64,000 nucleotides of DNA from Candidatus Latescibacterota bacterium (lineage in GTDB: Bacteria > Latescibacterota > UBA2968 > GCA-2709665). Positions within the stretch are counted from its first letter, which is position 1, and each line of letters starts with the position of its first letter. Location: positions 1,536,001 through 1,600,000 of the forward strand of contig OZ241917.1 of NCBI GenBank assembly GCA_965203805.1. The letters are read 5' to 3'. Shown here in pieces: positions 3,173 to 64,000 of this stretch. Made by a program: the position numbers and the translations under genes. Under the pieces are notes generated by a model. The model did no database searches. It worked only from the letters and a program-made list of their open reading frames with translations, and was not told where the DNA came from.

Positions 3173-3556
3173 CTACGTCTGCATGATCTGGATGAGATTG
3201 CCGCACGTATCGTCGAAGATCGCCAGCATAACTTCCTGATATTTGGTGGGTTCCATCGAAAACGAGACGTCGAGCGCCTTCAATCGCTCAAACTCGGCTT
3301 GAATATCCTCAACGCCGAACGACGCAGCCGGGATCCCCTGTTCGAAGAGTCCCTTTTGATATGTCTTTGCGACCTGATTTTCGTTCGGTTCGAGCAAGAG
3401 CTCGGGACCGTCGGGGTTATCGGGCGAGACGACAGTGAGCCACTTGAACTCCCCGACCGGAACGTCATGCTTTTTCACAAAACCAAGCGTTTCCGTATAG
3501 AACTTCAGGGCATTGTCCTGGTCTTCCACAAATACACCGGTAAGTACGATTTCCAT
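3173..3556 (-). CDS. VOC/glyoxalase family protein
   Basis: VFVEDQDNALKFYTETLGF..FDDTCGNLIQI; ATG at 3556 preceded by AAGGGG. Confidence 0.92.
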   Translation of the reverse strand: MEIVLTGVFVEDQDNALKFYTETLGFVKKHDVPVGEFKWLTVVSPDNPDGPELLLEPNENQVAKTYQKGLFEQGIPAASFGVEDIQAEFERLKALDVSFSMEPTKYQEVMLAIFDDTCGNLIQIMQT

Positions 3557-3661
3557 ATTGTCATTTCCCCTTGTTATCAGACGGTTTCGGGAACGGATGT
3601 TGCGCAGACGCATGATCGTTTTCCGACAGCATTGATAAATGATCGGCCTCTACTGTAATTC

Positions 3662-4543
3662 TCACGCGGCCATGAAGTCGGCAAAAGAACACCCCTTCGG
3701 ATGACAGTAGTTGTATTTGAAGTACGACCTGAATCCAATTTTTCGGTAGACCGGCTCTCCCATCGTCGATGCTTGAAGTACGGCAATTCTGTACCCCATT
3801 TGGCGAGCGTCCCTCATTGGCGCCAACGTCATTGCGGTTCCATTTCCCTTCCTTCTATGCTCCGGCGAAACTTCCACCTGATAGATTCCCGCAACCCCGG
3901 ATGACAGAAACATCATCGAAGTACCGACCGCTACCCCGTCGATCCTCCCCACATAAAGCCTTACCTCAGGCGAATGAATGAGACCCTTGAACATCCCGAA
4001 TTCGAATAGCGTGAAGAAGGACAACCATTCGCGCAGTGCCTTGTCATCACCCACCCGTTCTATTCTGAGGTCGAGCGGAAATGGACGCACTCCATTCATC
4101 GCATCCAGTTCCATGGCCATTCCGGGAGGATTGTGATCCATCGCCACGAAGCCATTTCTCAAGAGTTCGTTTCTCAAATTCGCCGGATGTGCTTTCGGAC
4201 CGAACTTGAGAAGCGGTGGCAGCTCCCTTTGCTCGATACCCTCGCGAATACGTTGGATACGTTTCTTGAGCATCGCTTCGTGGAAGCGCGGTTCGACCAG
4301 GTAATTCGGCCACCACGGTTTGCCGATGACGCCGGTGTAATCTTCTTCTCTCAGGATCGTCTTACCGCCCAATTCCGCGGCGAAGAGGAACAGATCGATG
4401 TTGTTCTGCTCGATCGCAGCAATGACAGCGGAATCCGAAGAATCATTCAACACATCTGGCATCTTGGAATCTATCTCGATCGATCCTGTGGTGGGTAATG
4501 TGACCTTGGTCGCATTGCAGTGCGTCGTGGCCGATTGAGCCAC
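3662..4543 (-). CDS. GNAT N-acetyltransferase (true start possibly 4462)
   Basis: VAGIYQVEVSPEHRRKGNG..AVLQASTMGEPVYRKIGF acetyl-CoA motifs. Confidence 0.88.
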   Translation of the reverse strand: MAQSATTHCNATKVTLPTTGSIEIDSKMPDVLNDSSDSAVIAAIEQNNIDLFLFAAELGGKTILREEDYTGVIGKPWWPNYLVEPRFHEAMLKKRIQRIREGIEQRELPPLLKFGPKAHPANLRNELLRNGFVAMDHNPPGMAMELDAMNGVRPFPLDLRIERVGDDKALREWLSFFTLFEFGMFKGLIHSPEVRLYVGRIDGVAVGTSMMFLSSGVAGIYQVEVSPEHRRKGNGTAMTLAPMRDARQMGYRIAVLQASTMGEPVYRKIGFRSYFKYNYCHPKGCSFADFMAA

Positions 4544-4546
4544 TCC

Positions 4547-4975
4547 TTAATCGAGCCTTAACTGCGAACCTATTTCTGCCAGACTCTCCTTATCTGCCTC
4601 CAAATGTGACGAGCCAAACTCGATGTTCCCCTTGTTCAGAATGTAGCGGGCAGACGTAACGTCCATATCTTCGTGCATTGGAAAGACATGCCCGTGCGCG
4701 TGGGGCACGCCACTTCCGGCGTAGACAAATGCAATTCGTTCTACCCCGTAGATGGCTTTCATTCTTCTGGCGAGGCGCTGGCCAAGTGCCATGATTCGTG
4801 CCGCGAGGTCACCGGGAACCTCGTCGAACGAATCGAAATGAACCCTGGGGATGATCAGGGTATGACCGTCTCGTATGGGCCTGGCGTCCAGAAACGCGAC
4901 AATCTCGGAATCCTCCCATACGATTACCGCTTCTGCGTTTCCGTTGGCAATTTCGCAAAAAGGACACACCGTCAC
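4547..4975 (-). CDS. HIT family protein
   Basis: CPFCEI, GHTLIIPR, VPHAHGHVFP histidine triad. Confidence 0.92.
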   Translation of the reverse strand: MTVCPFCEIANGNAEAVIVWEDSEIVAFLDARPIRDGHTLIIPRVHFDSFDEVPGDLAARIMALGQRLARRMKAIYGVERIAFVYAGSGVPHAHGHVFPMHEDMDVTSARYILNKGNIEFGSSHLEADKESLAEIGSQLRLD

Positions 4976-5107
4976 AATATCCTCAATCTGGCAGTTGTCC
5001 CACTGTTGACGGAATGTGTCACTGACACCGGCCTGAATTTATCCAATCTCCGATCCATTGGCAATACCAGCCGCGGTCTGCGGGTCCCGATAACCCGGTC
5101 AGGGCAT

Positions 5108-5515
5108 TCATCGCGGCTCGGTTTGAATTGTCTTTGAGATGATCGATTGCAGATCCGGTTCGCTAAACCGGTCCGACTTCAACACTTTGCCGTCCTCCCT
5201 GTATATCGGTTTACCGTGCTTGTCGAGTTTACTCATGTTGCTCCGGTGGACTTCGTCAAAGAGCGCTTCAGCGATATCGTGCAGTCCATGGGTGATGAAT
5301 GTGCCCAGGAGTACGTAGAGCAAATCGGTAAGGGAGTCCGCGATCTCGACGATGTCCCGGTCTTGTACGGCCACTCGATATTCCTCCAGTTCTTCCAGGA
5401 GCATCTTGACCCGCCATTCGCTCAACTCCGCGGGTACTTTTGCGGTAGGCGTGCGCTCTACGTGCGCCCCGAACACCTCATGAAATCTCCTCACGCTATC
5501 GAGTTGATCTTTCAC
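5108..5515 (-). CDS. Nucleoside triphosphate pyrophosphohydrolase (MazG-like)
   Basis: EELEEY..EIADSLTDLLYV..EVHRSNMSKL..REDGKVLK. Confidence 0.9.
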   Translation of the reverse strand: MKDQLDSVRRFHEVFGAHVERTPTAKVPAELSEWRVKMLLEELEEYRVAVQDRDIVEIADSLTDLLYVLLGTFITHGLHDIAEALFDEVHRSNMSKLDKHGKPIYREDGKVLKSDRFSEPDLQSIISKTIQTEPR

Positions 5516-5677
5516 ACGGATTCTCCCAAAGGCTCTGCCTCAAATGTTGTCGGAATGTCCATTGTCCCGCGAACCCAATGACTGACGTCCTGGCTGATTG
5601 GGCGAGCGTGAATCCTCTCAGCCGCAGCGCAAACCCACATGGCTCGCCGAATGTGGAATCGCCAGTCGGAGCTTCGA

Positions 5678-7565: not shown

Positions 7566-8107
7566 CTATTTGCGGCGCTGTCCCGCAATATACAGGCGTA
7601 GCGCTTTGATCGCCGGAAGATCTACATCTCTCACGGGTGCGCCAGCGTGGTGTTTGTGGAAGTTGACCTTCTCGTCAAGCTGGGCTTCAGCGCTGAGGAT
7701 CGGACAGGATAGGTCGCCCAGTTGCCCCTCCGGCGCACAAAAGGCTCCAGGCGAATACGGCCAGAGGCTACGACGTCTCCGGATTGAGTCCGTTGGAGTA
7801 ACCCAAAACTGACATATTGATCGAGTTTGCAAAACCCAATGTGTTCTTCGGGATGCCGGACTTCCTGTTGGGTATACCCCAACGCACAAAGACAGGCAGA
7901 CACGTCCGGCGCATCTGTCTTCCAAATCGCCCAATCGGCGTCGCCGTGGACGCGCGAGACTTCGTCGAGCAGAAAATCCAGAGCCCAACCCCCGCCAAGC
8001 CAGTGTGGGACCGAACGGGCTTTCAATGCCACATGAATCTCCCTGATCAGCCCAAGCTGGACAGAATTCGGGTCGGCCAGACACTCGATATCTACAGATT
8101 CAGACAT
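7566..8107 (-). pseudogene. Aminoglycoside/lincosamide nucleotidyltransferase-like gene, frameshifted
   Basis: HWLGGGWALDFLL..RVHGDAD in one frame; C-terminus WPYSPGAF..CPILSAEAQL in another frame from ~7760. Confidence 0.75.
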
Positions 8108-11312: not shown

Positions 11313-12137
11313 TTAAACCAGTCCGATTTTCCTGAACAGAAACAGGGCTTCAACGGTAAAACTCGCCCGGTGTTCCTCCCCGTGGCCGGTAATCCAGCCC
11401 CCGTCCTCCTGTTGATTGCCCGTCACGCTGGCCAATGACAATTCAAAGAGGTCTTCCGCAACGTCACCGGCAAGATGGCTGGCGTGCGCAATGGAGATGA
11501 CGTCTCCCGGATCCCCTTTGCCCTGTTCCACGGTATCATACAATATCCTCCTGCACCCGCTGACAATCTGTTCGTCTGTCCCAATGCCGGATGTGTGGAG
11601 ATGAAACAGTGGCAACGCCATCCAGTGTGTGTGATTGTAGTCCGGAAATCTCTCGCCATTCCATCCCCGCCGGACGAAATTCACGGCTTTTGAGAAATCT
11701 ACCTCGTGCTGCAGGCCCGATTCCATCAGTTTGCAGCACAGAGCCGCGGTCAACCAGACCTGGTTTCCATACCGGCCGGGCAGCATCCAGAACGGCGGAT
11801 TGAAAGCCACGATTGCTTCCGGCTCATCCCAGCTTCCGTCATCCCGCTGGGTTCTGCGGAGAAAGTCGAGTGTATTCAGCATTACCGAACTGTCGCGGTC
11901 TCCAATCCAGCTCAGCCATTGTAGCGCGACGAATGTCGCGGTGATGATCGACAGGTCGCCCTGAAAGTCCTTGTCGGTTCTCGTCCAGCCACCGTCGTCT
12001 CTCTGATTGACGGCGAGAGCCTCGATGACCTCGCCGCGACTGCAATCTCCCGTCGCATATCTGGCCAAACTCGAAAGTGCGGGATCGTCCGAATCAAGGA
12101 CGAAAGCCACGGCTCTTCCCGGATCAATTCTGCTCAC
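11313..12137 (-). CDS. Prenyltransferase/squalene-oxidase repeat protein
   Basis: QRDDGGW, QRDDGSW, QQEDGGW QW-like repeats. Confidence 0.85.
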   Translation of the reverse strand: MSRIDPGRAVAFVLDSDDPALSSLARYATGDCSRGEVIEALAVNQRDDGGWTRTDKDFQGDLSIITATFVALQWLSWIGDRDSSVMLNTLDFLRRTQRDDGSWDEPEAIVAFNPPFWMLPGRYGNQVWLTAALCCKLMESGLQHEVDFSKAVNFVRRGWNGERFPDYNHTHWMALPLFHLHTSGIGTDEQIVSGCRRILYDTVEQGKGDPGDVISIAHASHLAGDVAEDLFELSLASVTGNQQEDGGWITGHGEEHRASFTVEALFLFRKIGLV

Positions 12138-12189
12138 GATTCCTTCCTCCAACGGTCACTCGAACCTGGTGGCCGAAAACGAACAGTGC

Positions 12190-14413: not shown

Positions 14414-14447
14414 CCAATATGCGGCGCGACGTCATCCAGCCTCTATT

Positions 14448-14685
14448 AATCTAAGGCACAAACTTACATGGACGGACAGGATGAACAGGATAAAGACCAC
14501 AAGCAGGACAAATGCTCACCTTCCGGGCTAAATCGATAAATCCTTACTACTGTAGACCGCGCAACATCAACCTGACCCATCAGATTCCGCATTTTTTAAA
14601 CGCTGTCGTATAATTCTCCGCTGAAATTATTTAAATACAATCAGTTATACAACAGAACCGCGGATTCTCGTTAATCATCCAACCT
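14448..14685 (+). repeat. Dispersed spacer element, copy A (inverted relative to B-D; no hairpin insert)
   Basis: Reverse complement aligns with 23787-24050, e.g. TGAGCATTTGTCCTG..GGTCTTTATCCTGTTCATCCTG..CCATGTAAGTT. Confidence 0.8.
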
Positions 14686-15683: not shown

Positions 15684-17027
15684 TCAATCCCGTTTGGAAT
15701 CGCCTTTCGCCAGGCTGGCGCAGACAAGCTCCTCGTCATTTCGCGCAAACACATGCTTATAGGCGAACGCGGGATGTGCCCATGTGACCCCGCCTCTCCG
15801 GTTCAACTGATCGCGCGTCGGTTCGATCAGTTTCGCGCGACTGATGATATTCAGCCCGTCCGGCGAAAGCGTTGTAATCAGGAGTTCGCCACGCTCATTG
15901 AACATCCAGACCCTGTCGCCGTTCCTGATGAAATGGATATTGCTCCAGCGGGCTTTGGGCACCGCTGTCAGGTCTTCCCAGATCCGTTCGCCGTTGCGGG
16001 CATCAAGGCAGCGGAGTTCCCCGTAGCTATCCACACCGTAAATGTAATGGCCAAGTCGGACCGGAGTCGACATCGTGGAATGGAGGGCATCCGTGTTCCG
16101 CTCGTCCTTGCCCTTTCGGTGCCACCCGAATTGCATCTCCGGCTTATCCGGACTCACCTTCAGCAGCAACGATCCATCGAAGAAATCCGTAAAAAACAAC
16201 TCGTTACGATAAAAAACAGGGGATGCGATCCCGATCTCCATTCGATTCGGCGGAAAAGGATGGCGCCAGTAGACACCGCCCGTCTTCGGATTGAGACCGA
16301 CGATACTCTCGGCCGTCCGACAGACCAGGATGCGCTTATTGCCCTGCTTAATCGCAATCGGCGCCGAGTAAGATGCCTTGTCGTCCAGCGCCTTCCATTT
16401 CTCAACGCCGGTTTCGCGGTCGAATGCGACGATGCAGGCATCGGGCGTACCGCCGACCTGGACGATTACGTTTGATCCTTCAACGATCGGCGCACCTGCA
16501 ATGCCCCAGGTCGGCATCGCGATATTGTATTCGGAGTTCAGATCTCTCTTCCACTTCAATGCGCCGGTCGCCGCGTCGAAGCAGTGGAGATGGCCCATCG
16601 CGCCAAGGGCGTACGCCAGGCCGTTGTGAACGGTAACCGTCGCGCGGGGTCCCGCGACATAGTTGATCCGGTACTCGCAATCGTACGTGTAGGACCAGAT
16701 CAGTTCTCCCGTTTCCCATGCAAAACAGTGGACCCGCTCGACCTGTTTGGGTTTTGCGAGACGGTCCGTAACGTAAACGCGCCCGTTGGCGACGCTCGGG
16801 CCGCTATAGCCGCTGCCGATCGGCACTCGCCAGCGGACCGGGATCTCCGGGCCGTCAAGCGCTTCGATGATCCCGGTCTCTCGCCAGACCCCATCCCGGG
16901 CCGATCCGCGCCACTGCGGCCATTCGTCGGCCGCAATCGAAGAGATGGGGATGAACACCGCCAACATCATTGCCGTAAATCTCAAATGGATCCCCTTCAT
17001 GTTTCGTCCTGTCATTTGTTCTGGCAC
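15684..17027 (-). CDS. Secreted PQQ-like beta-propeller protein
   Basis: Signal peptide; EWPQWRG; GSGYSGP; repeated CFDAxTGxxxW; WAHPA. Confidence 0.9.
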   Translation of the reverse strand: MPEQMTGRNMKGIHLRFTAMMLAVFIPISSIAADEWPQWRGSARDGVWRETGIIEALDGPEIPVRWRVPIGSGYSGPSVANGRVYVTDRLAKPKQVERVHCFAWETGELIWSYTYDCEYRINYVAGPRATVTVHNGLAYALGAMGHLHCFDAATGALKWKRDLNSEYNIAMPTWGIAGAPIVEGSNVIVQVGGTPDACIVAFDRETGVEKWKALDDKASYSAPIAIKQGNKRILVCRTAESIVGLNPKTGGVYWRHPFPPNRMEIGIASPVFYRNELFFTDFFDGSLLLKVSPDKPEMQFGWHRKGKDERNTDALHSTMSTPVRLGHYIYGVDSYGELRCLDARNGERIWEDLTAVPKARWSNIHFIRNGDRVWMFNERGELLITTLSPDGLNIISRAKLIEPTRDQLNRRGGVTWAHPAFAYKHVFARNDEELVCASLAKGDSKRD

Positions 17028-17177
17028 GTAAATCTCCTTGAGGTATCGACGCTTCCGGCATTTGCAGCCGCCGCGAGCTTGACGGGTCGGAGCGGCACGA
17101 GCGACCTGGTAATCTGACGATTGCGCATCACGCGGGGCTGGCTCCCTTGACGGTTTCTGATTCTAATGATTCCAGAC

Positions 17178-17202
17178 GAACCTTTTCGCCTTCCAATACG
17201 TC
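17178..17202 (+). promoter_or_regulatory. Putative ECF-type promoter for the sigma gene
   Basis: GAACC-N16-CGTC upstream of the AGGAGGG RBS. Confidence 0.5.
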
Positions 17203-17227
17203 ATGCTATCAGGAGGGCATAGACCGA

Positions 17228-18547
17228 ATGTTACGACATCCGCCCAAAGAACTCGTCGGGCAATCCTCAGAGGGAAACACCGAAGCGTTTGTTGCCGCAG
17301 TCAGGTACTATGAAGATCGACTGGCCACGCTCATCAGATACTTCATTGATAATGAAAACGATGCGGCGGATGTGCTCCAGGATACTCTGCTCCAGGCCTG
17401 GTCCACTCGGCACCAGTTGCGGGAACCGACAAAGTTCGGCCCATGGCTCTTCCAGGTTGCGAGAAACCGCTGCCGGGATTTCCTCAGAGGAAAGCACAGA
17501 AGAGAACTGCCGACGTCGCCAATTGAGCTGGAGCGGATCCTGAATGAGTCACGTACGACGCCGCAGGATCGAATGGAATCGATCCGGCGGATCAGACGAG
17601 CAATAGAGAAAATACCAAATTACGAAGCGAACGCCATCAAAGACTTTTACTTCAAAGGTCTTACAATCGGAGAAATCGCAAAACGTACCGGACGTTCCGA
17701 TGGCACAATCAAACGCCGGCTTTCAACCGGACGTAATCGGATACGTGAAGTACTCGGCGTGTCAGAACAAAGAAGGAGGCCGCCAATGCCGGCACCTGTC
17801 TCACATGAGTTGAAGCACCGATTTCCCCAGGAACGTCCCACGATTCAGATCGGCAGGTCGGAGTGTCCATCATTTTCCGTAGACTGCCAGGAACTCCGAT
17901 GGTGGTTCGCCGTACCCAAAATAGACCAGTCGGTGCTCGTCGCAACCTATAGTCCGGACTCCTGGAAGCTGACGTCGGTAATGAGACTGAAAGCAACCGG
18001 AGTCGCTGAGGTCCACGGGGTCGAAGGTATCGAAATCGAGGTGACCGAGTCCAGTACGCAAACGCCCACGGAGAGCAGGGTCTGCTCGATCGTCGGACGG
18101 CTCACAGAAGAAAGGGCTCAGTACCTCGCCGTCATTCAGCGAAACGGAACGTTCAGTGTCGAGACTTTCTTGAGCGAGGCCTTCTGGCGAGATGCTCTCC
18201 GGATGCTTGAACCTCAGGGGACATTTAACGAGGTGGCGCCTCGGGAGTTTCGCAGAACTGACGAGTCCTGTGAAGAAGCGGGGGCGGGAAATCACGACGT
18301 ACGAGTAGAAGGTCGTTTGTTCTCGTGCCTGAGGGTCCTTGAGCTCGAGGGAGATCCCCGGGCGTCGGATTCCGTCTTCACCGAGAGTTTTCTAACTACG
18401 GAGGGCCGCACCCTGCTCAGGAGACATTTCTGCCGCCCTGAATGCGAGAACGTCTCCGTCGATCATTCGGAGGGGGTCGTAGTGGACGGATTCAGTTTCG
18501 TACACTGGTATGACAATCTGACAGATCTGGCGTTTCAGCAGCGGTAA
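17228..18547 (+). CDS. ECF RNA polymerase sigma factor with a long C-terminal extension
   Basis: DAADVLQDTLLQAW, WLFQVARNRCRD (region 2), GLTIGEIA..GTIKRRL (region 4); ~240 extra residues. Confidence 0.9.
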   Translation: MLRHPPKELVGQSSEGNTEAFVAAVRYYEDRLATLIRYFIDNENDAADVLQDTLLQAWSTRHQLREPTKFGPWLFQVARNRCRDFLRGKHRRELPTSPIELERILNESRTTPQDRMESIRRIRRAIEKIPNYEANAIKDFYFKGLTIGEIAKRTGRSDGTIKRRLSTGRNRIREVLGVSEQRRRPPMPAPVSHELKHRFPQERPTIQIGRSECPSFSVDCQELRWWFAVPKIDQSVLVATYSPDSWKLTSVMRLKATGVAEVHGVEGIEIEVTESSTQTPTESRVCSIVGRLTEERAQYLAVIQRNGTFSVETFLSEAFWRDALRMLEPQGTFNEVAPREFRRTDESCEEAGAGNHDVRVEGRLFSCLRVLELEGDPRASDSVFTESFLTTEGRTLLRRHFCRPECENVSVDHSEGVVVDGFSFVHWYDNLTDLAFQQR

Positions 18548-49400: not shown

Positions 49401-49418
49401 TTTTCTTCCTTGCGATAT

Positions 49419-49474: not shown

Positions 49475-49690
49475 AACCCGAATTTGGAGAGGTGGGCGTC
49501 TGCTGTTGCACATGCGAGCTTGACCAATATGCCCGTCAAATCTCCATGTTGGCGAGCGTCCTCAAAGACTGCGAAACCGCGAAGAAAGTTAGGCGAGGGG
49601 CTGTTGCCTCAAGCCGCGGACACGGTGCTACCAGTGTACGATGCTTCGGTTGGGCGCACGGTATGCATCGGGTCGGCTGATTGTCGCCTC

Positions 49691-50668
49691 TCAGGCTATG
49701 CCTTCGATTGCAGCCTCACCCATACGAATCGCCGTATCCGGAAGCGCGAGAATCCGGTCTTCCAGGGCCCAGATCCTCCGATTAGATGACTTCGGCCCCC
49801 ACTTCCGGTGGAGCTGGCAGAGGCGCCTGGCATAATAGGCGGCAAATATGAACGGGAGTGCGGTACGTTCATCATCTGAAGGAGGTCGGACTGAGAAGTA
49901 TCCCTCCACGAACCGCTGCGTCTCCTCATCGGTCAGCTGTCGACCCACGGTCCCCATCAGCCATTGCATCCGGACCATCACGACGTCTTCGAGCGCCGGA
50001 GCAAAGTGTGCCGAATTGAAGTCGGTGAACCGGACTTCACCCGTTGGGGAAGCAATCGTGTTCCAGCTTCGCACGTCTCCTCTACAGAAGAGCCACCGGA
50101 CGTCCATCGTTCTCGGCGTGTCATTCAACTGTGCTCGAAGCCGAGTGACGGCATCCGCCATGATCGAGGAAAACGTCGCCCTCTCGCAATACTCGAGAGC
50201 CTCGGAAATGTACGTCCGCGCATCTTTGATTTCTGATCTACAGGCAGAAAAGTCTTCGCTCGCATCGTGAACCCGTGCGAGCGCCTCCCCCACGTCGCGG
50301 AGCGTGTCGACGCGGTCGACGACCTCTCCTTCCAGGAAGCGCTCGACCGAAATCACCAGGTCTCGAACGGACTTGCAGGCGCGTCCATCCGTGGTTGGCC
50401 GAATGTCGGGGCACGGCGCGCCGCGACCGGCAAGATGGCGAACGAACGCCACGATGGTTTTGGGATGGGTCGCGCAGTCCCACCCCGGATTTACACGGAA
50501 CACAACGCGTCCGTCCCGCAAGCTGTCGCAAAAGAAGACACACCGCGAATTCGCCCTGCGGACGCTGGTTACTTCCAGGTCCCAGAATCGCTTGCAGAGA
50601 TCCGTGATTTCCCCCTGATCGGGCAGCGGGCCCGTTTCATCTCTGGATCTGGGATAGCGTGTTTCCAT
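49691..50668 (-). CDS. Phosphotransferase (APH/homoserine kinase type II fold)
   Basis: ALARVH, RGDVRSWN, FTDF. Confidence 0.8.
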   Translation of the reverse strand: METRYPRSRDETGPLPDQGEITDLCKRFWDLEVTSVRRANSRCVFFCDSLRDGRVVFRVNPGWDCATHPKTIVAFVRHLAGRGAPCPDIRPTTDGRACKSVRDLVISVERFLEGEVVDRVDTLRDVGEALARVHDASEDFSACRSEIKDARTYISEALEYCERATFSSIMADAVTRLRAQLNDTPRTMDVRWLFCRGDVRSWNTIASPTGEVRFTDFNSAHFAPALEDVVMVRMQWLMGTVGRQLTDEETQRFVEGYFSVRPPSDDERTALPFIFAAYYARRLCQLHRKWGPKSSNRRIWALEDRILALPDTAIRMGEAAIEGIA

Positions 50669-51330
50669 TGGCTTTCCGGCTCGGGAAAAGTTCTCCGTAC
50701 TTACGCACCCGAGCAGCGGGTTAACCGTAACCCCGCACGGGCCGTGGCCGAGGGCGCTCGTGTCAGGCGTCTGGCTCGGCAAGGGCAGGGTGGTGGCGCT
50801 AGAAACGCTCCTTGTCAAGTCGGTCAACAGTCTCGGCAAGGAAATGAAACCCGACCTCTCGAGGATAACTTCCAAGCCAGTCTCCCGTCACAAATTCAAA
50901 CGCCCAATCGTCTGTGTTCAGCACACCCATGCACCCCTCGTGGACTACCGGCTTCTGTGATCGCCGCGCATCGCTGACGACACTTGCGACCTGCACGCAC
51001 ATTGTGTCATACACCCGCCGTGGTGCGACGGGGTGGTGGAAATGGCCAAACACATGAAATGCAGGTTTTCGTTTCTTCAGGAAGCTCAGCATCGCATCAG
51101 GACCCGGCGCCAAGCCTTCGGATTCGGCGCCGACTCCGAATCCTCCTTCGTGGGAGACCAGGACATCGACAGCATCCTCTGAACGAGAATCGAGCCCGCT
51201 GGGATCCCCCGCTTCACAGAATCCAACCCGTACGTCCCGATCGTGATGGACGAATCCGTCGGGTACGTACTCGAAGATACCGTGCGGATCGATAGGCTGT
51301 GGATGTCCAAGTCCTTTTTCATCTAATGTT

Positions 51331-53153
51331 GAGTCCCCTCCGAGAAGGGGGTTCAGGAAGATTTCGTGTGTAGGTGTCAGTGTTGTGTATTGAGAGGTCG
51401 CGTTGCGTGGTGAAAGTGCATCGGGTTGCGGCCCATCAACACAGAGGCGGTTTACGAGGTTGCTCGCGTGGTTTTGGGGCAAGGATATGCATAAAAAAGT
51501 CGCATCTTATGCGGGGAGCATCGTGGGTGAGGTGAGGTAATTCTGGATCCGAACGAGATTGACCCATAAGCCACGACAGTGCGCCCACAGCTGATGTGGC
51601 ATCAATCCACGATAGCGAGTTTTGCCGTTTCGGGTGTAATAGCTCAACTGGAAGAGGCTGGCTTCGACGTTATTGCGTCGGTTTCTGATGTGTTCAGGCA
51701 GGGCTTCACTCTGTTTGCGTTTGATGTAGTTGTCGATGGCCTGTTCTTTAAAGTATCGGGGTTTGCCATCCATGATGAGTTTGTATTTCCCCGGTTTGTA
51801 TTCTTGGGCAAGCTGCACGGCTTGGGTATTTCGATCCATGACTTCGACGCCTTCTCTTGTTCGTCGATAAATGAAACGCCCTGGGGTTCCTTGCAGGCCA
51901 CTGTAATAGAATTGCTTGTCGTGTTCGTTTGCGTACTCGGCGTTGGATTGATCATTATAGGCCCCATCCATCGACACGTCTCGAACCTGCCCTACCACGT
52001 GCTGTGTGCGCCCTACGGCCGCTTGCACAAACGCGTTGTCGGGCGCTGTCGCGGATTTGACGTCAATGTCCGTGATCAAATTGAGGCCCTCCTCACCGCA
52101 GGTCTCGGTGAGGTTCACACTGTATCCTTTCACCTTCGCTTCCCCTTTCTTACGAAAGGCCGCATCTTCGTCATCGGGGGACTGCAAGGAGGATGCGGAG
52201 ATCTCATCAGGCGGCTTGGGAAGCACCTGTTTGGAGGAGGATAAAACCGAATACTGGTCTCCAAAAACACGCGCCATCACACCATAGTGATCGCTGTCTT
52301 TCTCGGTATAGATCGCTTGAAGCCTGCTCAATAACACACCGTATTCCTGTAGCTTCTCACCTTTTTCAGCACGGGTGAGACGGTAGACAACCTGATGGGG
52401 CTTCACCTTGAGCATTCCGTCCAGAACCTGCCGGTGTTTTCCTGATAATCGCCGCTTCCGGGCCTCGTCCAACGATCCCCAGAACCGTTGTAAACAACCC
52501 ACCACCAACTGCAACCGACAACATAGCGCAATGTTCGAGCCGATTAACTTACTGTCCATTCGGATTTGCTGACCCAGCACACCAAAGGCGTCGGCCTGCG
52601 TCTTCGTTAAGCTGCTAAAGGTCTCGCCAACCAGATCCCGACCGGTTTTCAGTTGATACGCATACAAGGACTGTTTGAACAGATAATACGTCGACTCCAC
52701 AGGCGCCTCATCAGACAGATTCATCAACCCCAATGCCCGCATCGCCAGGATATTGAACCGACATTGCTCGAACAGTTGTGCATCGCTCCACCCGAAGCCC
52801 TCCTTCAAGACCATCATCGCCGCCAACTGACGAATCGGGGCATTGGGACGGCCTATGTCGGGATCAAACAACACGGAAAACACATCCTCGTCGATCTCTG
52901 ACGTGATGTGCTGGTAAAACAGATTATGCCACGACTTCGGATCATTCAACTGCGCCTGCTTCCGCTGTGTGAAATGCGACTCGAAATTCGAAAACAGATC
53001 CGGTTGACTGCACGACGCACTCGGCTTATACATCTGTCCTCTCCCACGCTCTCTACAATTGTAATTCTCAATACTTCATCCTTGCTGACTTTTCACACTT
53101 CGAATTTAGTACTTTCACCAGCATAAGTAAATGCGACTTTTCGGAGTGGACTC
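51331..53153 (-). mobile_element. IS5/IS1182-like insertion sequence, complete
   Basis: IRs GAGTCCCCTCCGAGAAG / GAGTCCACTCCGAAAAG; 6-bp TSD AATGTT at 51325-51330 and 53154-53159. Confidence 0.9.
51507..53033 (-). CDS. DDE transposase (DUF772-like N-terminus)
   Basis: GRPNAP..WSDAQL, RMDS, LQSPDDEDA, DGAY, RNNVEA..TRYRG. Confidence 0.92.
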   Translation of the reverse strand: MYKPSASCSQPDLFSNFESHFTQRKQAQLNDPKSWHNLFYQHITSEIDEDVFSVLFDPDIGRPNAPIRQLAAMMVLKEGFGWSDAQLFEQCRFNILAMRALGLMNLSDEAPVESTYYLFKQSLYAYQLKTGRDLVGETFSSLTKTQADAFGVLGQQIRMDSKLIGSNIALCCRLQLVVGCLQRFWGSLDEARKRRLSGKHRQVLDGMLKVKPHQVVYRLTRAEKGEKLQEYGVLLSRLQAIYTEKDSDHYGVMARVFGDQYSVLSSSKQVLPKPPDEISASSLQSPDDEDAAFRKKGEAKVKGYSVNLTETCGEEGLNLITDIDVKSATAPDNAFVQAAVGRTQHVVGQVRDVSMDGAYNDQSNAEYANEHDKQFYYSGLQGTPGRFIYRRTREGVEVMDRNTQAVQLAQEYKPGKYKLIMDGKPRYFKEQAIDNYIKRKQSEALPEHIRNRRNNVEASLFQLSYYTRNGKTRYRGLMPHQLWAHCRGLWVNLVRIQNYLTSPTMLPA

Positions 53154-53566
53154 AATGTTTGGAGCGCTGCGAATTCGTCGTGGTTCCCAGCCGTAACCAG
53201 AATGGGCCGAGTCAGATGCTCACGGACCCTGTCTGGTAGAGTCGCATCAACATCATCCAGGAGGATCAGCTTAGCCAGGTCATAGACGGCAGGATCCCAC
53301 GCTTCGAACCTGTCAAATGGCACGTCTCCGGTCCTGGGGTCCGGAAAAACTCCCAGGTCACCTACTTGCACCACAAGATCGAACGGTTTTCCCCTTTCGG
53401 ATTGCCAGACCAGCAGGACTGAAAGGGCGTGACAAGCTCGTCCGTGTACATCACCAATGAATGCAATCTGCATGGGGTTCTCGTTCCAGCAAGTTTGCGC
53501 CCGACGTTCCTGCTGGCTGTGAACCTGCCGAAGCGCAGCGTAGAAAGGTTGGCAAAAAGGTTGCCT

Positions 53567-54565: not shown

Positions 54566-54568
54566 GGT

Positions 54569-59358: not shown

Positions 59359-59645
59359 TGCAATCTGGAAACTGATGGGAGTTCGATGTATTTTTCACCT
59401 GTCCTGCGATATTTCAATGCCTTCCTTCTTCCGACTGCTTTATCTCTCATCGATTCCGGCTTCCTTCTCAGTGTGGCGCAATCTGGCTTCAAGTTCTGCA
59501 AGGAACCCGTATTCATAAAGACGCGCTGAGAATCCGCCACAGTCACTCAAACTGGAGTTACCGCTGAGGTAATACGTATGGACTACCTTGGCTGAATTCC
59601 TCTGTCTTTCAGTTTAATTTCAGACGGAGACGTCAAAGCCGTCGC

Positions 59646-60764
59646 CTAATCCTTCAGGATGCGCTCGCCGCCATCCACAACATTTGAGAATATCTCCAGG
59701 AACTTTTCCGCCCTAGCCAGTCTCTTCCGCGCGTCATCGCTTGGTTTACTATCTGGATACTTTGACAGAAACTTCGTCATTTGGCGAAGTTCGAATCGGA
59801 ATCTGGCAATGTCGTCCCCGTTAAATTCATAAGGGGCCTGGTAGTAAGTCAGGAGCCGGAAGTAGGCCATGGGTGCCACCTCCGACGCAGGATATTCTGT
59901 GACGATACGTCGAAGCACCTCCCGGGCCTCATCAGGTTTCGGGACTCCCAAGGATGCTTTCGGAGGGAAGTATTTCCACAGGTCCTCAACAGCCGTCGCG
60001 TAATCAAAGTAGACTTGCGGCGTCTCCTCAGCCTCAACCCGTTGATCGGCCCTTTGGAATTTCTGCTGTGCCTCAATCAGTCTATCCAAAACTTGGATCG
60101 ACCAGCTAAGACCGCGAAATCCCCTGAAATATCCCTCGGTTATGGCGGATCCATGCGTGTACGTCGTAAACAGCATGACACTCTTTGTGGATCCAACTGC
60201 ATCAATTGCGTCTTCACCGAACTTCTCCATGATTTTCAGCAGCACCCGCTTCGCCCCTCGATAGTCCCTCTTGCCTGCGAGGAGCTTCGCGTTGAAGAAT
60301 AGACCGTATGGACTGTACAAGTTCAAGGGCGGCTCAGATGCCCTTTGGTAAGCCTCATTCGCTCTCATGTCTGTACTACCGCTAACTATTACATATGAGT
60401 GCCCGGCCAGGAGGTATAGCCAGGTCCTCGCAATCGGATTCGCCTCCTCTAAGGCCTCCAACGAAAGAAGGCTGGCGCTCCGTTTCAAGATCCTCTTTCT
60501 ATAAAGCCGGTACCCATCGAGTGTTGCCGGCAGTGCCCTTGAAGGTATCTCGACAGGGCGCTCGCGATAATACGTCCGGAATCGAACGTCAAGGTAGATG
60601 GGTTGTCCGGCTCGCAAGCGCACGGTTTCACCGGTGTGAAGGGTTACGTCTACATCTACCACTATTGGAACATGACGATGACCCATGGCGAAGCCATTGG
60701 CCTCGGCGTCCGATGCCATAAACAACGCGGCCAACAGGGCCCATAGATGTCTGGTAAATTTCAT
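59646..60764 (-). CDS. Secreted TPR/BamD-like helical-repeat protein
   Basis: Signal peptide; IVTEYPASEVAPMA and FLSKYPDSKPSDDA repeats. Confidence 0.7.
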   Translation of the reverse strand: MKFTRHLWALLAALFMASDAEANGFAMGHRHVPIVVDVDVTLHTGETVRLRAGQPIYLDVRFRTYYRERPVEIPSRALPATLDGYRLYRKRILKRSASLLSLEALEEANPIARTWLYLLAGHSYVIVSGSTDMRANEAYQRASEPPLNLYSPYGLFFNAKLLAGKRDYRGAKRVLLKIMEKFGEDAIDAVGSTKSVMLFTTYTHGSAITEGYFRGFRGLSWSIQVLDRLIEAQQKFQRADQRVEAEETPQVYFDYATAVEDLWKYFPPKASLGVPKPDEAREVLRRIVTEYPASEVAPMAYFRLLTYYQAPYEFNGDDIARFRFELRQMTKFLSKYPDSKPSDDARKRLARAEKFLEIFSNVVDGGERILKD

Positions 60765-61006
60765 ACAGGTCTCGGATTCACGTTTTGCATACAATCACAA
60801 AGAGGAAGAGGACGTCCTCGCACTATTTCTCGCCAATTATGCGGCGGGTATGCGGTGTTGACTGGAACGCACACTGTGCTTGGAGGCCCATGGCGTAAAC
60901 CCGCTAGCTGGCCGCCGGCTTCACGGCGGCCCAATCTTCCCGCCGTACCCGAACTGCCGCAGGCGGTTGACAAGGGTGCGGATGCACCGAGCCGCGCACG
61001 GACGCG

Positions 61007-61165
61007 TCAGGCGATTGCCGCGTCGAGGAAATAGAGTTTGGATTCTGCTCCGATTTCGGCGACGGCTTCCTTTATGTCGTCACGATCCTTTCGACTCAGG
61101 AAGTCCTTTGCCTGCTTTTTCAGGTGCTCGAGGTTGGGATTGGAGGGAAGAAGGACGCGTCTCAT
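61007..61165 (-). pseudogene. Chimeric remnant (ankyrin-protein N-terminus fused to an AAA-like internal piece)
   Basis: LPSNPNLEHLKKQAKDF joined to SRKDRDDIK..GAESKLYFLD. Confidence 0.55.
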
Positions 61166-62325: not shown

Positions 62326-62670
62326 TCATTGTCGTGCGTCTGGCGCCAAAACACCGGCAAGTGTTTCTGTCGCCCACTGATTGATACTCTTTCCACTTAC
62401 TTCAGCAGCCATCGCGATCGCTGCGTGAACCTCTGGAGGAATGCGCAACATCAGTTTGCCGGAATACGGCTTTTGAGGGGATCTGTTGAGCTTTTCACAG
62501 GTTTCTAGATAGTCGTCAACCGATTCTTCAAAAGCATAACGCAGTTCCTCAACCGATTCGCCGTGAAAGCCTACCACATCATTGATCCCTGCAATGTGAC
62601 CAATGAAGCAGCCATCTTCATCACTATAGTCAATCCGAGCCGCATATCCTCTATGGGTCATCGTGTTCAT
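62326..62670 (-). CDS. hicB: HicB antitoxin
   Basis: GYAARIDYSDED..FHGESVEEL..SVDDYL..PYSGKLMLRIPPEVH..SINQW. Confidence 0.95.
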   Translation of the reverse strand: MNTMTHRGYAARIDYSDEDGCFIGHIAGINDVVGFHGESVEELRYAFEESVDDYLETCEKLNRSPQKPYSGKLMLRIPPEVHAAIAMAAEVSGKSINQWATETLAGVLAPDARQ

Positions 62671-62921
62671 GGAGTAACTCCTGCCCGTTGTAGAAAACGT
62701 CTGGCATCACGCACTTGATAGACTCTTGCCTCTCTGTGAGGGTGAGGACGGTGAAAAGTAGCGACGACACCATTGAGCGCAAACCGCACCCGCGAACCTC
62801 TGCCTTCAATTGATTCAGCTCCAATTGCCTTGAATAAAGCTTCAATACGCCTCCACTCCAGTCCCGCAGGAACTGGCGTTTTGAAGATATCAGCCAGAGT
62901 ATCCCGGTGCCGTTTGTTCAC
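62667..62921 (-). CDS. hicA: HicA toxin
   Basis: WRRIEALF..EGRGSRVRF..FHRPHP; ATGA overlap with hicB. Confidence 0.95.
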   Translation of the reverse strand: MNKRHRDTLADIFKTPVPAGLEWRRIEALFKAIGAESIEGRGSRVRFALNGVVATFHRPHPHREARVYQVRDARRFLQRAGVTP

Positions 62922-62927
62922 GGGTCA

Positions 62928-62956
62928 ATGATATCACAATCTGATATCATTTGCAA
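62928..62956 (-). promoter_or_regulatory. hicAB promoter with overlapping operator
   Basis: TTGCAA-N17-TATCAT, 6 nt before the GTG; perfect IR ATGATATCA-N5-TGATATCAT. Confidence 0.8.
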
Positions 62957-63003
62957 GGGATTTGTGGAGATGTCAGTGAACGCCATCAATGTGTCAGTCT
63001 GTG

Positions 63004-63177
63004 TTAGATACACACCGGGTTGGGCATGCCGCTCCGAACCAGCGTCATCGTCGATTCGATCACGGTCAGCATCGTCACCTCCCCCTTGGGACCCAATCCC
63101 GCAACCGTCCGGAAATTTCTCAACGCCTGCCGTGTGGCGTCGCTTAGTTCACTGTCCACCAGCCCGGGACGATTCCC
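63004..63177 (-). pseudogene. Peptidoglycan-binding domain remnant
   Basis: PGLVDSELSDATRQALRNFRTVAGLGPKGEV; no start codon. Confidence 0.5.
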
Positions 63178-63180
63178 CCC

Positions 63181-63678
63181 TCACTCATCAGCGCGGTCGT
63201 CCTTCTTCTCGTGGCGTAATGTGCGTTCAAGTTCTGCCAGGAATCCGCTCTCACTAATAAATCCTGAAAATCCTCCGTATTCGCTCAAGTCTGAACAGGC
63301 TGTCAGAATTGAATTTGCCGCCATATCACTGGATATCTTCGCTTTAATCCCATTCAAATAAGATTCAAGATCCGGACGGTCCTGCAAAGCGCCTAACGCT
63401 CTGGGCCTGATTCCGGCGATTTCACGTTCCACGTCAATTCGCCATCCCTTATGCTTGAGAAATGACCGAAACGCGATTTCCTCGGCCTTTTCCAGATGAC
63501 CATCGATATAGAGCGTCATCACCGCAGCTTCAAGAAAGGCCAATTGTTCATCTGTCGTAAGCTTTCGCGGATCGATAATTGAGCGCATTCTGGAACTGAA
63601 GAGCTTAAAGAGAGTGCCTACGAGGATTGGTGCAAGAATGAAAATAGCTATCACTGCAATTGAGTCATCTGAGAACAT
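63181..63678 (-). CDS. Membrane-anchored TerB-like protein
   Basis: N-terminal TM; YIDGHLEKAEE..SESGFLAEL. Confidence 0.6.
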   Translation of the reverse strand: MFSDDSIAVIAIFILAPILVGTLFKLFSSRMRSIIDPRKLTTDEQLAFLEAAVMTLYIDGHLEKAEEIAFRSFLKHKGWRIDVEREIAGIRPRALGALQDRPDLESYLNGIKAKISSDMAANSILTACSDLSEYGGFSGFISESGFLAELERTLRHEKKDDRADE

Positions 63679-63883
63679 CGATCCCCCTGCAACACCTGTT
63701 TGTCCTCTTTGTCTGACGTTCGGCGAACATACCAACGGCAAGTCGGGTGGGGGCCCGGACGGCCCGAGCCGCAAGTGCTGCCGTTACCCGACGCCGGGAC
63801 GATCGTGCTGCTTTCCCTGACGACAAGGAGGCCGCAAACCAGCGACATCCTCAATTCGAATGAGGCTCCCGTTTCACTTTGCT

Positions 63884-64000
63884 TCACTTCATCAGAAAGT
63901 TCCTGCCATACTGATACGCGGTCTCGAGATTTCTTGCCCTGTTGCTCGATGTTGCAAAGTGATCCGCCATACCAGGGAGGAGCGCGAACTCACAATGCTT
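63884..64000 (-). CDS. 3' end of a gene starting beyond the window (possibly flavodoxin-like)
   Basis: ..RARNLETAYQYGRNFLMK*. Confidence 0.4.
   Translation of the reverse strand, partial: KHCEFALLPGMADHFATSSNRARNLETAYQYGRNFLMK

Follow-up and report, generated by a model that had tools for sequence, protein, structure and literature searches.

The 64,000-nt stretch of DNA analyzed here (the window, which defines all coordinates unless stated otherwise) very probably represents the promoter-distal, oldest two-fifths of the cassette array of a ~150-kb sedentary chromosomal integron that is now a CALIN. The genome that carries the window (G000) and its relatives (denoted by other G numbers) show attC sites, the crossover point of an attI, cassettes reshuffled at the GTT core, and a gradient of age from one end of the array to the other. 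The array within the window and its single exception to the common gene direction are as follows.

3173 to 64000, minus strand: distal (old) part of the cassette array, with ~62 short genes in one direction, recognized by Pfam, the gene map and the strand-bias rank.
17147 to 18547, plus strand: ECF sigma factor with a long extension at its C terminus, the sole supported plus-strand gene of the array, kept in three out of six relatives.

Pfam matches and the gene map extend the array by ~88 kb beyond the right edge of the window to coordinate ~152,400, and the whole array (3173 to ~152,400, genome positions 1.539–1.688 Mb) covers ~150 kb and ~140 genes. A total of 59 minus-strand ORFs within 3173–64000 have a Pfam match (E ≤ 1e-3), compared with one (the ECF sigma factor) out of 58 plus-strand ORFs of at least 120 aa that overlap the array. 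The original prediction of a co-oriented minus-strand array with one exception that runs past the right edge was thus borne out. The strand bias is specific to the array, which ranks first among 572 sliding 150-kb windows of the genome (one strand holds 0.961 of the coding bases, against a median of 0.62 and a 95th percentile of 0.87 for the genome), and the median gene length is also smallest in the array (268 aa vs. 351 aa, 150-kb windows). The predicted variation in GC content was found as well (0.497 to 0.624 per 2-kb window), as were the unrelated neighbors and recurring families, in the predicted numbers: six class-I methyltransferases (5678, 24786, 25677, 29847, 39743, and 47845), three NUDIX (10289, 13045, and 58918), three VOC (3173, 20917, and 28957), two GNAT (3662 and 32591), three metallophosphoesterases (12297, 18756, and 53093), and two sulfotransferases (9452 and 40638). 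The cassettes are rich in APH, AAC(3) and ANT(2'')-like genes, GNAT, VOC, and beta-lactamase-fold enzymes. The recurrence of methyltransferases, APH, NUDIX, HAD, and VOC could also reflect a birth-and-death process in which a few enzyme families were duplicated in tandem and diverged with the orientation kept, but this origin is extremely improbable: only three window genes have an in-array paralog (E ≤ 1e-10, coverage ≥ 0.5), these paralogs are <31% identical and 43–117 genes away, and same-family neighbors are unrelated in sequence.

Three toxin–antitoxin (TA) modules and at least ten gene remnants had been predicted. Two of the modules are clear and the third consists of a weak RHH match and a truncated Fic/Doc gene; about six remnants were verified (one of them by eye only), not ten. 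Two insertion sequences are also present.

62326 to 62921, minus strand: HicA/HicB toxin–antitoxin cassette (Pfam, HicB 2.9e-22, HicA 8.3e-10).
48814 to 49511, minus strand: TA-like DUF4160/DUF2442 gene pair (Pfam); the same pair is found near the array head in G013.
29327 to 29721, minus strand: possible RHH antitoxin and truncated Fic/Doc toxin remnant (E 0.0018 and 0.024, below the Pfam cut-offs), including a Doc fragment.
7631 to 8107: gene remnant, ANT(2'') fragment.
11313 to 12152: gene remnant, partial cyclase-like ORF.
34251 to 34873: putative gene remnant, a frame with an in-frame TAG, recognized by eye only.
34874 to 35365: gene remnant, SIR2 fragment.
51480 to 53095, minus strand: IS5-like (DUF772) insertion sequence with seven identical genome copies, interrupting a metallophosphoesterase cassette (N-terminal part 53093–53473, C-terminal part 50799–51482).
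22218 to 23605, minus strand: IS256-family insertion sequence with three identical genome copies, missing at the equivalent site of G012.

Folds and an alignment, together with 96 sites found in the relatives, agree with the pattern expected of attC sites, namely imperfect palindromes of ~55–140 nt with R'' (..AAC) and R' (GTT..) cores, paired L'' and L', and a variable center. R'' TAAC and R' GTTA are conserved, and the 10-bp L stem displays compensatory changes at all ten pairs, with 88.5% of the cells paired compared with 32–55% for a control with a slid partner. A covariance model (R2) built solely from the relatives' attC sites, with filters off for the window scan, identified six sites in the window and 32 unique sites further right (38 in total, 41,572 to 151,883), all on the minus strand. 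Whole-genome scans placed 27 out of 27 covariance-model matches (150 out of 3608 candidates scored) and 32 out of 32 nhmmer matches, all on the minus strand, inside the array; outside it, no attC was found by nhmmer across the whole 5.87-Mb genome or by the covariance model among the 150 out of 3608 candidates scored. Over seven arrays, 206 out of 207 nhmmer matches lie in array orientation. Sites are mostly located within about 100 nt 3' of a minus-strand stop codon. The window holds six to nine of them, all eroded and all to the right of 40 kb; the predicted lack of a canonical attC set holds for the window only, and attC sites of canonical type follow further right in the same array.

60928 to 61013, minus strand: best attC relic in the window (R2, 40.2 bits, E 2e-7), ~220 nt 3' of the ornithine cyclodeaminase gene, with an intact L stem and mutated R boxes (TGAC...GATT).
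63710 to 63790, minus strand: attC relic (R2, 29.3 bits, E 1e-4), 3' of gene 63884–64552.
50682 to 50769, minus strand: attC relic (R2, 29.7 bits, E 8e-5), between the IS-split metallophosphoesterase cassette and the APH gene.
49550 to 49634, minus strand: attC relic (R2, 28 bits, E 2e-4), just 3' of the APH gene 49691–50875.
48707 to 48755, minus strand: truncated attC relic with the center deleted (R2, 26.6 bits, E 5e-4), 3' of the DUF2442 gene.
46608 to 46692, minus strand: attC relic (covariance model E 0.011, nhmmer E 9e-5), after the GT2 gene 46713–47525, whose G013 orthologue has a strong attC (E 5e-12).
42497 to 42565, minus strand: weak attC relic (covariance model E 0.054, nhmmer 0.007), after the SDR gene 42650–43480.
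41572 to 41656, minus strand: attC relic (R2, 28.9 bits, E 1.3e-4), immediately 3' of the M24 peptidase gene 41669–42445.
40457 to 40544, minus strand: leftmost detectable attC relic (covariance model E 0.021, nhmmer 2e-4), ending in AACGTTAAAC, after the sulfotransferase gene 40638–41624.

No attC is detectable left of 40,457 in G000 (best candidate E 0.12, R2 with filters off), which is consistent with an alternative where the integron takes up no more than the right ~24 kb of the window (40–64 kb) and 3–40 kb are ordinary, vertically inherited chromosome with leading-strand co-orientation. Many gene junctions in the left part are <50 nt or overlapping and leave no room for an attC, Ks in this part equals or exceeds that of the flanks, and the replichore between 0.8 and 2.0 Mb has 45–94% minus-strand coding bases per 100-kb bin (mostly about 60–80%). 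This restriction is nevertheless unlikely, since attC sites of the relatives are interspersed among the orthologues of left-part genes (G013 at 10.9, 25.5, and 37.6 kb; G008 at 16.2, 26.0, 31.9, and 44.3 kb; G011 at 18.5–31.3 kb), a degenerate attI copy lies at 22.4 kb in G013, and the orthologue of 18756–19595 is directly followed by an attC on its 3' side in three out of four relatives that have the gene. Furthermore, content, gene size, and polarity of the left part are continuous with the attC-bearing part (~96% on one strand in the top-ranking 150-kb window), and its gene content is still turning over. An integron origin of the entire array within the window is preferred.

Comparison with the relatives agrees with the predicted single-gene indels and shuffling. 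Each relative contains orthologues of only 22–36 out of 62 window genes and gene order is only partly conserved (collinear chains of 21 out of 30 to 33 out of 34), whereas the strand is kept in 189 out of 190 orthologues. Neither of the two observations named in advance as contradicting the original prediction, a conserved gene order and a genome-wide strand bias, was made. Orthologues of the window genes at 18756, 31737, 39743, 40638, 43673, 46713, 49691, 58197, 58918, and 59646 are followed by attC in relatives. Some genes of the left part resemble core genes; the PQQ beta-propeller gene at 15684–17027, for instance, has a counterpart with 81% DNA identity in another family. Between G000 and G012, homology is lost or regained precisely at the R' GTT of coordinates 95118, 98341, 100051, 102106, and 119458, and 11 out of 138 homology breakpoints lie within 15 nt of an R' site, compared with ~0.6% expected by chance. 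Most breakpoints between close genomes are located away from detected attC sites, and several indels are flanked by short direct repeats rather than attC. Median Ks against G013, G008, and G011 decreases along the array from 0.75, 0.67, and 0.54 in the window to 0.21, 0.19, and 0.04 further right (flanks 0.36 and 0.56), and Ka/Ks in the window is 0.15. Judged from these substitution rates, the window genes are old, vertically inherited, and under purifying selection, and the cassettes further right are younger. The location of dnaA (3.64 Mb), the GC-skew maximum (~0.8 Mb), and the negative GC skew over 0.8–2.0 Mb suggest that the leading-strand template carries the attC bottom strands, with a GC-skew curve that is irregular elsewhere; the same placement is reported for 25 out of 30 sedentary chromosomal integrons (SCIs) (Loot et al. 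2017).

The head of the array is preserved in the relatives. A ~165-nt segment 3' of a recombinase stop codon is conserved in G013, G011, G008, and two further loci (L073 and L074) and ends in ..CCGTAGTTA; the five sequences are unrelated beyond the GTTA. By this comparison, the segment is an attI with its crossover at the GTT. Each of the six relatives that were fetched carries one to four attI copies, one of them near PolB. At the right end of the array, recombinase and attI adjoin the PG-binding gene and PolB; the PolB anchor is common to all 15 genomes of the genus, and arrays were confirmed at this locus in the six fetched genomes. The prediction that a recombinase would be found beyond the right edge therefore holds for the relatives, but G000 has lost both elements: it contains no attI copy, and no integrase or recombinase remnant was found in its genome (best TIGR02249 score 93 bits, cut-off 265).

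The recombinase of the relatives is a tyrosine recombinase with VchIntIA as its closest solved relative. It scores 214 bits against TIGR02249 (cut-off 265), lacks ~42 aa relative to VchIntIA (the IntI-specific insertion), and has an additional conserved N-terminal domain of ~105 aa with the motif IPGRRW..P..KCW. The gene points in the same direction as the cassettes, with attI just past its 3' end. The intact form is 376 aa long, and all three copies examined within the genus are damaged (the N-terminal domain is missing in G013, a frameshift affects G011, and an internal part is deleted in G008); the G013 copy scores 218.6 bits against NF040815 (recomb_XerA_Arch, curated cut-off 220). The original prediction had offered an uncharacterized capture array with non-canonical sites as an alternative to an eroded integron or CALIN. 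Such an array, driven by a serine or HUH (non-tyrosine) recombinase, would fit the window's lack of any Rfam family match and the lack of a canonical integrase but is highly improbable in view of the attC architecture, which makes non-canonical sites unnecessary, the GTT crossover, and the tyrosine recombinase closest to VchIntIA; the reading as a heavily eroded integron or CALIN is upheld.

The array's own recombinase would be IntI-like, with the additional domain at its N terminus but no IntI-specific insertion. A competing possibility, which we regard with some doubt, is that this short-type recombinase is a passenger or neighbor and that the array was built by a canonical IntI since lost throughout the genus or acting in trans. 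Canonical IntI (464.5 bits, with the IntI-specific segment) is present in G017, a member of the same family, and in G034, and in G017 it lies directly beside a short-type gene at two loci. In addition, the preprint of Ghaly et al. (2022) describes the IntI-specific domain as a requirement for recombination in integrons, and the short-type family is very large (>7,700 members at E ≤ 1e-30) and extends to phyla not known for integrons. However, none of the 15 genomes of the genus contains a canonical IntI above the TIGR02249 cut-off, and no attC of this array's family lies within 20 kb of the IntI loci of G017. In five genomes, and in several copies, attI and the short-type gene move together as a single unit. 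G016, which belongs to another genus, has no canonical IntI, and its strong attC array surrounds a short-type gene. Among 31 metagenome contigs with at least 2.5 kb of flank, 7 have attC sites next to short-type recombinases, recognized by their structure rather than their sequence. Together with the GTT crossover and the size of the family, these associations make it somewhat probable that a distinct clade of tyrosine recombinases, with the ~105-aa N-terminal domain in place of the IntI-specific one, runs integrons in this Latescibacterota lineage and in other uncultured lineages.

In the proposed mechanism, the tyrosine recombinase would insert promoter-less circular cassettes (one ORF and one attC) at an attI that probably lies at the head of the array, on its right-hand side beside the PG-binding gene and PolB, and insertion at a single head would give all cassettes one polarity. 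Loss of the recombinase gene and every attI copy in G000 has frozen the array as a CALIN, in which changes now arise solely through insertion of IS elements, microhomology deletion, and point mutation. Cassettes of the window have descended vertically since the divergence of the genus under purifying selection, with most attC sites lost, and behave as domesticated accessory genes (mainly small-molecule-modifying enzymes and TA modules) that are probably expressed from their own promoters.

Cury et al. (2016) define a CALIN as a cluster of attC sites that lacks an integron integrase, with a mean of five attC sites. Taken as at least two clustered attC sites with no integrase nearby, this describes G000, which has neither integrase nor attI and, with 38 covariance-model attC sites, far exceeds that mean; its relatives reveal the former platform. 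It is not a complete integron, as an intI with the additional domain and attI are both absent. The operational definition of SCIs by the same authors (>19 attC sites or presence in all genomes of a taxon) agrees with the number of sites, and the fixed PolB-linked locus and vertical inheritance point the same way.

The array resembles the Vibrio cholerae superintegron and other SCIs in its size (>100 kb), short ORFs of one polarity, lineage-homogeneous attC, TA cassettes, duplicated cassettes, GTT-core exchange, and attC bottom strands on the leading-strand template. It differs in its candidate-phylum host, the absence of integrase and attI from G000, the 40–60 kb of distal array without attC, the several attI copies in relatives, and a linked recombinase that lacks the IntI-specific domain and points in the direction of the cassettes. 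The preprint of Colombi et al. (2025) describes an ancestral chromosomal integron in Xanthomonas with lineage-specific intI inactivation. Both integrons occupy one conserved locus across a genus (here by PolB, 15 out of 15) and have repeatedly inactivated or lost integrases and arrays that are then stable; compared with that account, the present array is far larger, has another integrase type, and has lost attC sites while its ORFs stay selected. A recombinase co-directional with the cassettes and followed by attI is also reported for the “inverted” integrons of the Treponema group and for archaeal integrons (Cury et al. 2016; Ghaly et al. 2022), but their IntIs carry the IntI-specific additional domain, which the recombinase described here lacks while having the ~105-aa N-terminal domain.

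A literature search, judged from titles and abstracts, found no description of integrons in the Latescibacterota; with 150 kb and ~140 genes, this array is comparable in scale to the Vibrio superintegrons. Should the linked recombinase be the integrase, the defining domain may be dispensable, and a second integrase profile would have to be added to detection tools. Complete integrons of this kind would then be classed as CALINs wherever a survey demands the intI_Cterm signature, and the definition itself could create part of the CALIN excess that has no explanation so far, as well as the seeming lack of integrons in some phyla. A single array displays both ends of cassette evolution: young cassettes shared between species with intact attC near the head (Ks down to 0.04), and ancient cassettes that have no attC and are still intact under purifying selection (Ka/Ks 0.15). 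It shows directly that integron cassettes turn into ordinary genes of the chromosome, and it accounts for the lack of recognizable sites that is possible in co-oriented islands of unrelated accessory genes. The cassette content represents an environmental reservoir of small-molecule-modifying functions.

A total of 59 minus-strand open reading frames (ORFs) with a Pfam family (E ≤ 1e-3) were found between 3173 and 64000 when every minus-strand ORF of at least 75 aa and every plus-strand ORF of at least 120 aa of the window (G000:C1:1536001-1600000, in the 5.87-Mb, single-contig genome G000) was scanned. A single one of the 58 array-overlapping plus-strand ORFs (at least 120 aa) had a Pfam match, an ECF sigma factor at 17147-18547. 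The original prediction had described a one-strand array of short genes with varying GC content and recurring families, and this description held: GC content ranges from 0.50 to 0.62 per 2 kb across the window, and six methyltransferases, three NUDIX, three VOC, two GNAT, three metallophosphoesterase and two sulfotransferase genes are present. Further window genes encode AAC(3), an ANT(2'') fragment, two APH, HIT, MazG-like and HAD proteins, HicAB and a DUF4160/DUF2442 pair, and two genes encode transposases; neither Rfam nor tRNA searches gave a match in the window. Paralogs within the array (E ≤ 1e-10) exist for only three window genes, all <31% identical. The recurring families are therefore not recent duplicates, and a tandem-duplication origin of the array was ruled out.

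The array was also correctly expected to run off the right edge. Gene calling with a simple dicodon model trained on G000 itself added ~88 kb of co-oriented short genes up to window coordinate ~152,400, with content of the same kind (more methyltransferases, ~8 APH, NUDIX, HAD, GNAT, VOC, beta-lactamase-fold and ankyrin genes). The left border is a helicase operon on the plus strand and the right border a PG-binding gene and a family-B DNA polymerase gene (PolB). The fraction of coding bases on one strand is 0.961 in the array (genome median 0.62, 95th percentile 0.87), which ranks first among 572 sliding 150-kb windows of the whole G000 genome; the same bias is therefore not seen genome-wide and was rejected as the cause of the polarity. 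The median gene length (268 aa vs 351 aa) is the smallest among the 572 windows.

Inspection of the window intergenic regions, by eye and by 7-mers, revealed hairpins and no obvious common site, and the resulting reading that attC sites are absent was overturned once the whole 150-kb array was analysed. In a 7-mer count over all array intergenic regions, read on the minus strand, TAACACG (14.8-fold) and AACGTTA (11.8-fold) were enriched. Their occurrences pair at a spacing of 75-125 nt, mainly at window coordinates 100,000-149,000, and each pair brackets an imperfect palindrome with the following layout:

5' side: nnyTAAC, spacer, L'' box of 8-10 nt
Middle: variable centre, often with a small hairpin of its own
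3' side: L', 5-nt spacer, GTTArrr-3'

Folds and alignment show that this is the architecture of attC sites. A covariance model built from nine G000 seed sites (R1) gave 35 matches in G000, every one on the minus strand, and 96 matches in the arrays of six relatives, all in array orientation. The R boxes of these 96 sites are conserved in sequence and the L stem displays compensatory changes at 10 out of 10 pairs, in an alignment that was fitted to the structure and hence leans towards it; in the same structure-fitted alignment 88.5% of the L-stem cells are paired (32-55% after shifting the 3' partner by 1-3 columns) and none of 500 shuffles matched the observed covariation. A second model (R2) is not circular for G000 because it was built from the relatives' sites only. 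With filters off, R2 gave six matches at E ≤ 0.01 and nine at E ≤ 0.1 in the window, all on the minus strand and each directly after a gene stop codon. None lies left of 40,457, where the best candidate had an E of 0.12. A further 32 unique matches, all on the minus strand, lie right of the window, and the left flank of the array contains none. In a whole-genome search in which 150 of 3608 first-look candidates were scored, all 27 matches fell within 1,596,928-1,684,382 of the contig. An nhmmer profile derived from the R2 alignment placed all 32 of its G000 matches inside the array on the minus strand and none outside; across seven arrays 206 out of 207 matches were in array orientation, mostly within ~100 nt downstream of a minus-strand gene. 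A crude regular-expression and stem scanner for generic attC sites recovered 5 out of 16 known sites in locus L104 and none in two others (L073 and L074), and is uninformative on other phyla.

No integron integrase was found in G000: the top-scoring TIGR02249 matches, at 2.27 and 3.37 Mb, are Xer-like genes with 93 bits (cut-off 265). None of the 15 genus genomes exceeded the cut-off. The recombinase anticipated beyond the right edge exists in relatives: a tyrosine recombinase gene lies at the right end of the array in the same-genus genomes G013 and G011, on the cassette strand and a few kb from PolB, with none in G000. Fragments of the gene were detected in G008, G003, G013 and G011. Comparison of G013, G011, the G008 pseudogene, L073 and L074 (the last two from other records titled Latescibacterota) revealed a common segment of ~165 nt 3' of the recombinase stop codon that ends in ...ATTACCGTAACnGTTCGGTAATCCCGTAGTTA; directly after GTTA the five sequences are unrelated. 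This pattern is the signature of an attI whose crossover lies at GTT. The six relatives contain 1-4 copies of this attI each, one of them near PolB, and G000 contains none. Lacking both integrase and attI, G000 falls into the category of clusters of attC sites lacking integron integrases (CALIN) as described by Cury et al. (2016), and comparison with the relatives makes its former platform recognisable. Outside the window, G000 carries a reverse-transcriptase gene (RVT_1, 142993-144561, minus strand; L017:2993-4561) at a position where the relative G012 contains a recombinase 3' remnant, attI and two cassettes instead.

The G013 protein has the Vibrio integron integrase VchIntIA as its best solved relative (2a3v, E 2.8e-43), in an alignment of two blocks that skips 69 VchIntIA residues vs 27 query residues. 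It scores 214 bits with TIGR02249 (cut-off 265) and 218.6 with NF040815 (cut-off 220), and a canonical IntI of G017, a genome of the same family, scores 464.5 bits. The GKGxKDR and HxxRHSFA motifs lie 100 aa apart in the canonical IntI of G017 and 59 aa apart in the recombinase linked to these arrays, here termed short type, which lacks a segment present between them in the canonical protein. According to the preprint of Ghaly et al. (2022), the IntI-specific domain is a defining feature of integron integrases and necessary for integron recombination; by that definition its absence places the short-type protein outside IntI. Database homologues indicate an intact length of ~376 aa, of which ~105 aa form a conserved N-terminal domain (IPGRRW..P..KCW). 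At E ≤ 1e-30, more than 7,700 homologues from many phyla were found, some of them named "site-specific tyrosine recombinase/integron integrase" by NCBI. The intact form, modelled with AlphaFold (pLDDT 87.8), matched VchIntIA best and XerA second. The L073 copy is intact; the three copies examined within the genus are all defective:

G013 copy: N-terminal domain missing
G011 copy: frameshift
G008 copy: internal deletion

Residues 1-53 of the G013 ORF match window 63535-63693, which looked like a fossil array head in the window; this was ruled out, as the stretch is not part of the recombinase family and replaces the lost domain. The match (62% identity over 53 aa) covers the start of ORF 63181-63774, so the truncation in G013 fused the recombinase to a piece of a related cassette. 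In a sister genus, G017 pairs the two recombinase types in two loci (L065, G017:C1:2492064-2496008, and ~2158606-2160115), with a canonical IntI of 338 aa (464 bits) followed after ~370 nt by a short-type gene of 284 aa on the same strand. The short type is multi-copy in G017 and in G031 (six copies, 314-aa ORF).

We lean slightly towards the short-type recombinase as the cognate integrase of the array. Its gene and attI move as one unit, and G016, a genome of another genus without canonical IntI, has 19 strong attC matches around its short-type gene; same-strand attC sites also lie downstream in other loci from records titled Latescibacterota or Gemmatimonadota. Against this stand the presumed requirement for the domain, the canonical IntI adjoining the short-type gene in G017, and the huge size of the family, which is present in phyla without known integrons. 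In favour of the short type again, the canonical IntI of G017 was rejected as partner of this attC family, with no match within 20 kb of its two loci by R2, a model that could miss other attC types. Further evidence in favour comes from a metagenome survey of 80 contigs encoding relatives 31-55% identical: 31 contigs had at least 2.5 kb of flank and seven of these contained attC matches (three with 2-3 sites each), next to recombinases that are all of the short type. Their TAAC/GTTA boxes are clean and their L stems complementary; the sites are found by the covariance model and missed by a sequence-only profile, and lie in contigs with a GC content of 0.40-0.51 in six out of seven cases.

Much of the region is present in fourteen same-genus genomes at 74-94% DNA identity, and the PolB anchor in 15 out of 15, with a distance from the left-end matches to PolB of about 96 to 150 kb. 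The whole region was fetched from six relatives and genes were compared by reciprocal best hits. A single relative's array contains orthologues of 22-36 of the 62 well-scored window genes, and 189 out of 190 orthologues keep their strand. Gene order is shuffled: the longest collinear chains range from 21/30 to 33/34, and in the more distant relatives 6/8 to 7/16 adjacent pairs are still adjacent, while three right-flank genes (151-153) have the same order in all six. The comparison of gene order called for in the original prediction thus shows partial conservation only, with frequent single-gene indels and polarity-preserving shuffles. Between G000 and G012 (92.9% identity over aligned array DNA), homology begins or ends exactly at the R' GTT at 100051, 119458, 102106, 95118 and 98341. 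At these points one cassette stands behind different attC sites, or one attC is followed by different cassettes. In G000, 11 out of 138 ends of high-scoring pairs lie no more than 15 nt from an R' core (~0.6% for random positions), as do 2-7% in four other genome pairs (vs 0.4-1%). Breakpoints are mostly located away from detected attC sites and several indels are bounded by short direct repeats; the array is also shaped by illegitimate deletion and IS activity.

An IS5-like element (DUF772 transposase; 51480-53095, 1,616 bp, seven identical genome copies) interrupts a metallophosphoesterase cassette, whose N-terminal part now lies at 53093-53473 and its C-terminal part at 50799-51482. An IS256-family element (22218-23605, three identical genome copies) has an apparent ~8-bp flanking direct repeat, seen by eye in the junction sequences, and is absent from this position in G012; a 75-nt inverted copy of one of its ends lies 37 kb away at 59623-59697 (92% complementary) and is probably a solo IS end. 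An apparent in-frame TAG was seen by eye in a small membrane-protein frame (34251-34873, minus strand). A repeat of ~100-350 nt is built of CAGGAT-rich units and a GC hairpin (GCCTGCCTG...), with GGTCCATCCATGTAAGTT as its end motif. About 25 partial copies, oriented either way, are spread over the genome; the repeat resembles a MITE or REP element and is unrelated to attC. Its window copies are:

14442-14666
23800-24053
32245-32580
33757-33848

The Ks between reciprocal-best orthologues of G000 and its relatives declines from left to right along the array, with the same trend against G014/G009 and against G012.

Median Ks of G000 vs G013/G008/G011
Left flank: 0.36
3-25 kb (window): 0.75
25-45 kb (window): 0.67
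45-64 kb (window): 0.54
64-85 kb: 0.21
85-105 kb: 0.19
105-130 kb: 0.04
Right flank: 0.56

The high Ks shows that the window genes diverged at least as much as the core genome. They have been passed down vertically from the time the genus diverged and are under purifying selection (median Ka/Ks 0.15, maximum 0.32). Many cassettes right of the window differ far less between species than the core genome does, indicating exchange after speciation, and the five best G000 attC sites lie within a 9.3-kb segment that G012 lacks. For ten window genes, an attC site follows the orthologue in relatives (directly so for gene 18756-19595 in three of the four relatives that have it), which ties window genes to the cassette system despite the loss of sites in G000. 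For the leftmost 3-18 kb such attC-after-orthologue support is thin; the alternative that the integron never carried some of the left end is rather unlikely. A PQQ/BamB-like beta-propeller gene, 80-82% identical in DNA even in another family, and the divergent ECF sigma gene form a conserved pair embedded in the array (15684-18547), which may be a non-cassette island. Outside the window, a 458-aa protein (83625-85001, minus strand; L014:625-2001) that matches no Pfam family up to E 0.1 shares 98-99% identity with its counterparts in all six relatives (Ks 0.00-0.02 vs 0.1-0.3 for its neighbours) and has a 55% identical paralog at 93764-95077; a recent sweep, a mobile unit or nucleotide-level constraint could account for it.

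The dnaA gene lies at 3.64 Mb, close to the cumulative GC-skew minimum, and the skew maximum at ~0.8 Mb, so forks should cross the array from right to left. On this skew curve, which is irregular between 2.1 and 3.7 Mb, the cassettes would be co-directional with replication and the attC bottom strands would lie on the leading-strand template. Loot et al. (2017) report this orientation for 25 out of 30 sedentary chromosomal integrons and link it to large stable arrays.

Overall, strand bias, attC sites, and the attI and recombinase of the relatives bear out the first of the two alternatives proposed, a heavily eroded integron or CALIN. The window corresponds to the distal portion, eroded and domesticated, of a very large sedentary chromosomal integron, which has no integrase in G000. 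This kind of system is already known. The host phylum, the multi-attI arrays and a cassette life history that is visible from mobile unit to ordinary gene are new, and the chief new element is a linked recombinase without the domain that defines integron integrases.
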